This document shows, one piece after another, positions 21,324 through 21,949 of a stretch of DNA of 42,657 nucleotides; position 1 is the stretch's first letter; the number at the start of each line of letters is the position of its first letter. The stretch is from the sequence record PP925827.1. The stretch is one strand, 5' to 3'. The notes under the pieces are model-generated. The model did no database searches. It was not told the origin of the DNA and saw only the letters and a program-made list of their open reading frames with translations. This stretch comes from Escherichia phage Flotzy. Position numbers and translations under genes: made by a program.

Positions 21324-21349
21324 TGAAATGCAACCAAATAAGATGAACG

Positions 21350-21377
21350 TTACATTGCAATCTCCCTTGGTTATCAT
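21350..21377 (+). promoter_or_regulatory. candidate sigma70 promoter for lipoprotein insert
   Basis: TTACAT - 16 bp - TATCAT upstream of lipoprotein start. Confidence 0.35.
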
Positions 21378-21402
21378 GTCCAAAACGATGCCGATCAAGG
21401 AG

Positions 21403-21885
21403 ATGAAAGTGAAAAAATACGGTTTGGTCTTATTTGGTGTGCTCTTTATTTCAGGTTGTGCCCCACAAAATCAGAATAACAATTTACAAAAGCAATACGC
21501 TGATTTAGCAAATTGTGAAGATAACATTACGATGCCAAAACAAATGCCGCATAGTAAAAAGGAGTTTGCGGACTTTTTATCTAAGGCTGCGCTTAATGCC
21601 TCGGCAGATCAGTTTGTTATTCAGAAGCGTATAGAGATTCTTCAATTAGTTGGATGGGATAATTCGGTAGCTGATGCAATAACAACATGTAGCGCCACCA
21701 GAAAGAGCAAGCTTAAAGAAATTGGGGCGAATGTGTTTGAAACCATGAAAGCCAATACTAAAGACACAGAGGAACGTCGTGCTCTTGTTGAGGCTTATAG
21801 TTCGTGGGAGGCTTATGTAACCAGTCAAACGCCACTCGCAAAACAGGACTTTGACTCAAAAGTTAGTTATTACAAAAACATGTAA
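21403..21885 (+). CDS. lipoprotein inserted between I and J (candidate superinfection-exclusion/lysogenic-conversion protein)
   Basis: AAGGAG RBS; signal peptide with lipobox FISGC; AT-rich codon usage; own terminator downstream. Confidence 0.65.
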   Translation: MKVKKYGLVLFGVLFISGCAPQNQNNNLQKQYADLANCEDNITMPKQMPHSKKEFADFLSKAALNASADQFVIQKRIEILQLVGWDNSVADAITTCSATRKSKLKEIGANVFETMKANTKDTEERRALVEAYSSWEAYVTSQTPLAKQDFDSKVSYYKNM

Positions 21886-21915
21886 TAAGACGCCATCATT
21901 AATACTAACAAAAAA

Positions 21916-21938
21916 CCCAGCTCAGGCTGGGTTTTTTA
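21916..21938 (+). terminator. rho-independent terminator after lipoprotein gene
   Basis: CCCAGC-tcag-GCTGGG hairpin followed by T6. Confidence 0.8.
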
Positions 21939-21949
21939 ATGGGGTAAAA

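Follow-up and report, generated by a model that had tools for sequence, protein, structure and literature searches.

morF, a lipoprotein moron between tail genes I and J of Escherichia phage Flotzy, belongs to a prophage family of siphovirus tail modules and may act in superinfection exclusion

We analyzed a 42,657-nucleotide (nt) stretch of DNA, the whole of which is called the window hereafter, from Escherichia phage Flotzy (PP925827.1), a phi80-like temperate phage. The analysis focused on the 626-nt block at positions 21324-21949 that separates tail genes I and J. This block is the moron morF of phi80-type phages, an autonomous unit of putative promoter, lipoprotein gene and terminator inserted at an I-J junction that was probably once tight. 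Comparisons with related phages and prophages show that MorF is a mobile, dispensable, and selectively maintained lipoprotein cassette. Its relatives are found mostly next to tape-measure and tail-tip genes, and we tentatively favor a role in blocking phage entry after adsorption.

Identity of the cassette and size of the family

The product of the cassette matched PHROG 8179 (E = 3.6e-73), with residues 1-158 aligned to positions 1-159 of the 159 in the profile. In megablast searches against phage records, the gene was 99.4% identical in nucleotide sequence to a gene of Eeyore annotated as "hypothetical" and 94.6% identical to morF of phi80. The amino acid (aa) identities are 99% and 94%, respectively. 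Flotzy and phi80 carry the same gene at the same site between I and J, with the difference that the Flotzy allele is full length and the phi80 reference is shortened at the C-terminus. The phi80 gene is named morF in JX871397/NC_021190, and GenBank record FN582354 describes CBH95072.1 as "MorF lipoprotein precursor; moron gene product", with a -35, a -10, a transcription start, an Lsp signal peptide, an acylated Cys, and a rho-independent terminator. Hence, the cassette that an earlier note had singled out from the sequence is not a new object, since it is already in GenBank as phi80 morF, together with the elements which that note listed.

The family is small: a collection of 5.8 billion proteins yielded 43 clusters at 90% identity, and one of 1.84 billion proteins yielded 24 representatives at 50% identity. 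Members range from 155 to 172 aa, and all of them are lipoproteins. Those with a named source are all from Enterobacterales, namely Escherichia, Leclercia, Enterobacter, Pseudocitrobacter, Citrobacter, Salmonella, Kluyvera, Atlantibacter, Pseudescherichia, Providencia, and Arsenophonus. The gene is rare, being carried by 5 of 185,579 species-representative genomes and by 3 of 5426 complete genomes of E. coli. The family includes close members (clade A, with at least 89% aa identity) and a second clade (clade B, 52-64%). In the literature found, which did not include the phi80/Lula genome paper (PMC3510586), no function is assigned to MorF, and none is recorded for any member of the family.

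Anatomy of the cassette

The block is the exact intergenic interval between I and J, and contains one real open reading frame (ORF) on the + strand. The cassette and its flanks have the following features:

20706..21323, + strand: tail assembly gene I, left flank (stop TAG at 21321-21323; Pfam Lambda_tail_I, E = 1e-5)
21326..21334, + strand: left copy of the 9-nt direct repeat AAATGCAAC, which duplicates the start region of J
21349..21377, + strand: sigma-70 promoter-like site (-35 GTTACA at 21349-54, 17-nt spacer, -10 TATCAT at 21372-77)
21397..21402, + strand: ribosome-binding site AAGGAG, 6 nt before GTG 21409 and abutting ATG 21403
21409..21885, + strand: morF coding sequence, 158 aa from GTG 21409 (160 aa from ATG 21403)
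21409..21456, + strand: lipoprotein signal peptide MKKYGLVLFGVLFISG, with lipobox I-S-G-C and Cys codon at 21457-21459
21457..21882, + strand: mature lipoprotein of ~141 aa, with a predicted helical domain behind a flexible linker
21910..21937, no strand assigned: intrinsic terminator AAAAAACCCAGC-TCAG-GCTGGGTTTTTT, with a 12-bp stem, a TCAG loop, and a T6 tail
21948..21956, + strand: right copy of the repeat AAATGCAAC, overlapping the J start codon at 21950
21950..25414, + strand: gene J, central tail fibre and host specificity, right flank (start ATG 21950)

The flanking genes correspond to the lambda-like L, K, I, and J according to Pfam. The phi80 counterpart of gene I is gene 20, the 205-aa "tail assembly protein I". 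J has the domains FNIII-A_GpJ, Phage-tail_3, and Phage_Tail_Tip, and is 96% identical in aa sequence to J of phi80 except at its extreme C-terminus. Positions 21327-21931 have a G+C content of 0.395, compared with 0.527 in the window as a whole and 0.54-0.56 in the adjoining 2 kb to the left and to the right, which places this segment in the lowest 0.2% of all 605-nt windows. The earlier note had described an AT-rich, self-contained unit that interrupts the I-J junction. Every element that it named was found in its place, and the promoter-like site, the lipoprotein ORF, the terminator, and the deviant G+C content all support the view of a horizontally acquired unit. Morons, in the sense of Juhala and Hendrix, are recognized by patchy presence, deviant composition, their own promoter and terminator, and expression from the repressed prophage. 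The cassette is patchily present among close relatives, deviates in base composition, and has its own terminator.

The perfect 12-nt inverted repeat of the terminator folds at -18.8 kcal/mol (z = -4.0), and none of 200 shuffled sequences was equally stable, which agrees with the dedicated terminator proposed from the sequence. An A-run upstream of the hairpin potentially makes it act in both directions. Distant homologues retain the terminator, and homologues from other lineages also end in hairpins followed by a T-run. An Rfam scan of positions 21000-22300 returned sub-threshold matches only, all of them on the terminator hairpin, and the 5' leader of morF does not fold stably.

The promoter site proposed in the earlier note, TTACAT-16-TATCAT, is present, and corresponds to GTTACA-17-TATCAT shifted by one base. 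However, it matches 9 of the 12 consensus positions, and we found two such sites in the region where 2.5 were expected, i.e., the match is no better than chance. The best available evidence comes from the comparison of clades. A non-coding 5' region encompassing the -35, the -10, the leader, the ribosome-binding site, and the start codon is common to clades A and B. The similarity starts at the -35 element, and there is none upstream of it. In clade B, the promoter-like site and leader are kept in the prophage homologues of Citrobacter, Kluyvera, and Atlantibacter, which are located between the tape-measure gene and M. The conservation of this 5' region at different genomic positions suggests a functional promoter that is part of the mobile unit. 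From these signals, morF is probably transcribed in lysogens from its own promoter, in addition to read-through from the late tail operon.

The ribosome-binding site AAGGAG was read directly from the sequence, as had been claimed, and its equivalent in the second clade is GGGG(A). Translation starts in that clade at an ATG in the position of GTG 21409. The reading frame of Flotzy ends at TAA 21883-85, with a second TAA directly after it. Some annotations, those in Eeyore and in NC_021190, start instead at ATG 21328 and thus contain an ORF of 185 aa. This product is very unlikely, because the ATG lies upstream of the promoter, falls inside the duplicated start region of J, and has no conserved counterpart in the second clade. 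The 9-nt repeat duplicates the start of J, which accounts for the presence of this spurious ATG.

Insertion at a junction left empty in close relatives

Phages LLS, mEp043, and mEp213 are 97.6-97.7% identical to Flotzy in DNA sequence through the tail region up to the stop codon of I, and the similarity resumes in J. Their I-J spacer is of 53-54 nt, compared with the 626 nt of Flotzy. Since relatives with tail genes that are ~97.7% identical have such a short spacer, morF is a dispensable add-on. Among the 5426 complete genomes of E. coli, 37 carry an I-J junction of this type, and morF occupies three of them, two of which are in laboratory strains.

The insert is bracketed by the two copies of AAATGCAAC, and the same arrangement is found in phi80, Eeyore, and a prophage of Enterobacter wuhouensis. 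The repeat may be the scar of an insertion at the once-tight junction. The unoccupied junction is itself not tight either, and has a T-run and a J leader in common with the occupied site. The empty spacer (positions 1167-1219 of our mEp213 locus, L013, and the corresponding LLS locus, L014) contains a small GC hairpin followed by a T-run (-10.6 kcal/mol, z = -1.3).

The MorF lipoprotein

The N-terminus of MorF (MKK-YGLVLFGVLF-ISGC) has the charged start, the hydrophobic core, and the lipobox of a lipoprotein. The lipobox noted earlier is borne out by the alignments, in which its Cys is shared by all of 30 close and all of 24 distant homologues. LPAM_1 matches 9 of the 24 family members. The residue at +2 is Ala, Ser, Thr, or Val, and is Asp in none of the 24 diverse members. 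Given the Lol-avoidance rule, this lack of Asp predicts sorting to the outer membrane.

The AlphaFold2 model of MorF (mean predicted local distance difference test, pLDDT, of 81.5; predicted template modelling score, pTM, of 0.72) consists of a disordered tether followed by a confidently predicted helical domain, with helices at residues 22-34, 50-81, 85-115, 120-139, and 142-157. Cysteine C94 is invariant in the close and distant sets, and C36 is invariant in the former and present in at least 90% of the latter. The helical domain of ~135 aa is probably stabilized by a disulfide bond. Conservation in the family further extends to the motif ALxxAYSxWExY and to the C-terminal YYKN(M/I), which is YYKNM in MorF. 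The ratio of nonsynonymous to synonymous substitution rates (dN/dS) is 0.06-0.09 among the copies located between I and J and 0.08-0.16 within the second clade, indicating purifying selection.

Together, these features suggest a protein that would be exported, lipid-modified at Cys17, and carried by the Lol pathway to the inner leaflet of the outer membrane, from where its helical domain would face the periplasm. We consider it very likely that this description is right as a whole, including the dispensability of the gene for making virions and its probable expression from its own promoter and by read-through.

Searches for other relatives gave little. Pfam had nothing above threshold (the top matches being Phasin_2, E = 0.11, and LprI, E = 0.22), PADLOC 2.0 had no family at E <= 1, and NCBIfam nothing meaningful. 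Searches of the PDB with the single sequence and with a profile matched signal peptides only, and Foldseek comparisons of the model with the PDB and BFVD found nothing with E < 0.1. Weak matches to LprI, a lysozyme inhibitor (PF07007), recur in 5 of the 24 members, with a best E of 0.0055. As a reference for this family, we confirmed that E. coli YecT is a true member of PF07007 and built a YecT-family profile. Homology to LprI/DUF1311 was rejected: MorF scores 12.3 bits for a cut-off of 22 bits, and the hhalign probability is 0.2% against YecT and 1% against the YecT-family profile, with only the signal peptides aligned.

Genomic contexts across the family

We could study nine informative genomic contexts, one short contig being left out as uninformative. 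All of them are prophages or phages, and eight are inside a siphovirus tail module, always on the strand of the tail genes. In clade A, the order is always I-MorF-J. In clade B (Citrobacter, Enterobacter, Salmonella, Kluyvera, Atlantibacter, and Pseudescherichia), MorF lies between the tape-measure gene and M. This slot is a hotspot of defence cargo, as it also carries a convergent PD-Lambda-1/SNIPE nuclease, an ORF of 193-207 aa, or a SocA_Panacea protein. In the Citrobacter prophages (loci L003-L008), the MorF homologue is at 6001-6483 and the convergent nuclease at 6544-8157 (PADLOC, E = 2e-200).

More distant members have other positions. Those at 24-29% identity are directly upstream of the tape-measure gene, in the order tail chaperone T-MorF-tape measure or cargo-MorF-tape measure. 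One member at ~24% identity precedes a DUF6950 gene and J, and another at 42%, in a metagenomic phage (L032), follows a repressor/Arc/antirepressor cluster and is upstream of tail gene I. In the latter phage, a 136-aa lipoprotein ORF (MKKLLIALCLTGLAGC...; 3920-4330) comes immediately after the MorF homologue, also upstream of gene I.

The comparison of the two clades also allowed us to contrast the rates of divergence of MorF and its neighbors. Between clades A and B, the MorF proteins are 52-62% identical, and the neighboring tail proteins only 34-49%. Hence, the target of MorF appears to be more conserved than the receptor-binding parts of the phage.

MorF and the receptor-binding gene

The earlier note had proposed that MorF blocks the phage's own receptor in the manner of Cor and Llp. 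Such an inactivator would prevent superinfection and the loss of progeny on cell debris. Similarities to Cor (phi80, N15, HK022, and the mEp phages) and Llp (T5) do exist. All are phage lipoproteins for which an outer-membrane anchor and a periplasmic orientation have been predicted or shown. Their genes belong to the tail or host-range region, and many have a promoter and a terminator of their own. MorF, furthermore, is encoded directly upstream of J. Coliphages are reported to commonly carry exclusion lipoproteins that target TonB-dependent transporters, and the mechanism of Llp has been proposed to be general for such transporters (PMC9586334).

The resemblance is nevertheless limited to the signal peptide, since PHROG 1119 (Cor) matches only residues 1-29 of MorF (E = 0.0068). 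The size and the predicted fold differ: mature MorF is of ~141 aa and predicted to be helical, whereas the Cor precursor has 77 aa and mature Llp 61 residues (PMC9586334). MorF is also not encoded after the receptor-binding gene, and in the other clades it adjoins the tape-measure gene instead. To compare it with genes matched to the receptor, we analyzed 11 phi80-like tail loci and related the C-terminus of J to the lipoprotein gene that follows it:

J C-terminus ...LTGVF, followed by Cor: phi80, mEp213, L015, L025
J C-terminus ...RMGLW, followed by a 120-aa lipoprotein: the Flotzy window, Eeyore, LLS
J C-terminus ...GSGSFTG, followed by a 77-aa lipoprotein: L016, L017, L018
J C-terminus ...GSGSFRE, followed by none of the three lipoprotein genes: L026

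The lipoprotein gene after J agrees with the type of J in all 10 loci having one (10 of the 11 loci). MorF, present in nine of the 11 (it is absent from mEp213 and LLS), is 89-99% identical over the four types of J and shows no covariation with them. In addition, cor and morF occur together in phi80, L015 (a tail locus with the Cor-type J), and L025 (the prophage of E. wuhouensis), and each of the four possible combinations of their presence and absence is represented. Since the gene after J tracks the type of J and MorF does not, the role of MorF appears, from these comparisons, to be independent of the receptor used. The proposal of a Cor/Llp-like blocker of the phage's own receptor is thus not supported, given the absence of homology in the mature protein, the co-occurrence with cor, the lack of covariation with J, and the tape-measure neighborhood of the distant relatives, and we regard it as very improbable. 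The broader part of the proposal, a role in superinfection exclusion or lysogenic conversion, is still plausible.

A tblastn search of the window with Cor found no homologue. The site occupied by cor in phi80 and mEp213 is taken in Flotzy by the following gene:

26313-26675, - strand: 120-aa lipoprotein ORF (MKRLFAVALLLMAGC...), PHROG 25729

Because the gene at this site switches with the type of J, the 120-aa lipoprotein is a better candidate than MorF for a receptor-matched exclusion factor analogous to Cor.

Possible functions of MorF

We tentatively favor a model where MorF, as a periplasmic protein with an outer-membrane anchor, would stop the entry of phages that have already adsorbed. 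On sequence grounds this is possible, though still some way from probable. MorF would be an envelope-level superinfection-exclusion factor acting after the recognition of the receptor, without masking the receptor of its own phage. It would hinder the delivery of siphovirus genomes by binding either the incoming apparatus of tail tip and tape measure or a conserved periplasmic host factor that this apparatus needs. Four observations argue for this model: the persistent adjacency to tape-measure and tail-tip genes in divergent tails, the fact that the slots are shared with SNIPE (in Citrobacter) and with HK97 gp15 (in distant members), the conservation of MorF, which is higher than that of the receptor-binding parts, and the independence of MorF from the type of J.

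The two genes sharing these slots have relevant functions. The moron gp15 of HK97, whose gene separates those of the tail chaperone and the tape measure, is a proven blocker of genome entry whose specificity depends on the tail and which leaves the receptor untouched (PMC3594210). It resembles MorF in being a moron in a siphovirus tail operon, and distant MorF homologues occupy the same slot. Unlike the lipoprotein MorF, gp15 (YebO-like) is small and resides in the inner membrane, and homology between the two is not expected. SNIPE, which associates with tape-measure proteins, attacks the DNA while it is being injected (PMC13190303).

A further precedent is known from Gram-positive bacteria. 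Ltp, of the Streptococcus thermophilus phage TP-J34, is a lipoprotein encoded by a prophage; it has a helical domain and blocks the injection of DNA by targeting the tape-measure protein. As a lipid-anchored helical exclusion protein located outside the cytoplasmic membrane, it is the closest functional analogue of the favored model. It differs from MorF by its Gram-positive host, by its location in the lysogeny module, and by its fold, which is unrelated as far as known.

Several observations weigh against a block of entry after adsorption. The location in tail modules may be no more than a consequence of permissive cargo slots passed on together with these modules, and a member at 32% identity is in a cargo cluster of the early region, outside the tail module. 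No coupling of MorF to the allele of the tape-measure gene is visible, because the tape-measure gene is essentially the same in phages with and without MorF. Upstream of the distant homologues, we detected no promoter of the sigma-70 type. Finally, the reference phi80 morF (loci L001 and L023) has a TAA in place of the TCA (Ser) found in Flotzy (~21859-21861) and in every other homologue. The protein thereby loses its C-terminal SKVSYYKNM, which is otherwise nearly invariant, and the allele of laboratory phi80 may therefore be impaired.

A related mechanism would have MorF jam, from the periplasm, another conserved transporter or envelope protein of the outer membrane, thereby protecting lysogens against heterologous phages or colicins that depend on it, whatever the receptor of the carrier phage. 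The conservation of MorF across genera and its independence from the type of J fit a conserved target in the host, and the generality proposed for the mechanism of Llp would extend to other TonB-dependent transporters (PMC9586334). Moreover, phi80 lysogens show an unexplained interference with T4 and P1 (PMC2885432). Yet, the known examples are small and encoded directly downstream of the matching receptor-binding gene, whereas MorF is larger, predicted to be helical, and located elsewhere, and none of the searches (Pfam, PADLOC, NCBIfam, PDB) indicates a target. We therefore see this mechanism as improbable, if less so than a block of the phage's own receptor.

MorF could also be a lysogenic-conversion factor whose benefit is unrelated to phages, such as resistance to serum or complement, tolerance to envelope stress, or inhibition of lysozyme or of peptidoglycan hydrolases. 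This would be in line with its moron architecture of putative promoter and terminator, with an envelope lipoprotein evolving under purifying selection, and with the recurrent weak matches to LprI, even if the link to LprI failed the direct tests. There is a precedent in Bor of lambda, a prophage moron encoding an outer-membrane lipoprotein that is expressed in lysogens (PMC3594210). Bor/Iss and MorF are alike as outer-membrane lipoprotein morons. However, Bor adjoins the lysis genes, has homologues in bacteria and plasmids, and confers serum resistance, while MorF has no sequence relationship to it and is nearly confined to tail modules. If MorF were a general fitness factor, its near-exclusive location in tail operons (eight of nine contexts) would be unexpected, and it should also occur outside prophages, whereas all informative contexts are prophages or phages. 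The rarity of the gene, in E. coli as among species representatives, is a further difficulty. We judge a host-fitness role rather unlikely, though it deserves more credit than the jamming of another envelope protein.

Last, MorF might be a late lytic accessory that aids release or protects new virions, in which case the "promoter" would be incidental. The gene is always co-oriented with the tail operon, the promoter match is at chance level, and the distant homologues have no detectable promoter. But sister phages without morF are viable, a strong terminator separates morF from J, and the promoter and leader are conserved across clades. A lytic role thus seems to us very doubtful.

Other modules in the window

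The window contains several other genes of note. A Ser/Thr protein kinase (4562-5329, + strand; Pkinase, E = 2.6e-30; PADLOC models PD-T4-6, mad6, and Stk2-like) is directly followed by a PP2C phosphatase (5326-6066, + strand), the pair being located between the lysis cassette and the terminase genes. The 5' part of the pair falls in a low-GC block (4351-5106), and from its sequence the pair looks like a second cargo or defence module. The early region has two large ORFs of DNA methyltransferases on the + strand (38618-39952 and 39891-41882), one Dam-like N6-adenine and one C5-cytosine, which presumably have anti-restriction or self-protection functions. In the lysis region, a 48-aa lipoprotein ORF (4201-4347) lies in another frame inside a 176-aa ORF (3918-4448), which is the usual Rz1-in-Rz arrangement of spanins.

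Implications for prophage-encoded exclusion

The phage phi80 is a notorious laboratory contaminant, and the gene described here is part of its genome. It is conceivable, although we hold it to be rather unlikely in this full form, that MorF founds an unrecognized family of prophage lipoproteins of Enterobacterales, genetically linked to siphovirus genes for the tape measure and the tail tip and blocking, after adsorption, the delivery of genomes in the periplasm. If MorF were instead a host-fitness factor, it would be one more ordinary lysogenic-conversion gene. If it is a receptor-independent blocker of entry in the periplasm, it would add a new protein family to the exclusion mechanisms of Gram-negative bacteria, as well as a new step at which exclusion occurs, the transit of the tail tip or tape measure from the outer membrane to the periplasm. 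MorF would then be a Gram-negative counterpart of Ltp, and in the periplasm it would complement HK97 gp15 and SNIPE, which block entry at the inner membrane. In Flotzy, the Cor-like role matched to the receptor would in that case fall to the separate 120-aa lipoprotein encoded after J. Such a mechanism would also be relevant to failures of host range in phage therapy against Enterobacterales.

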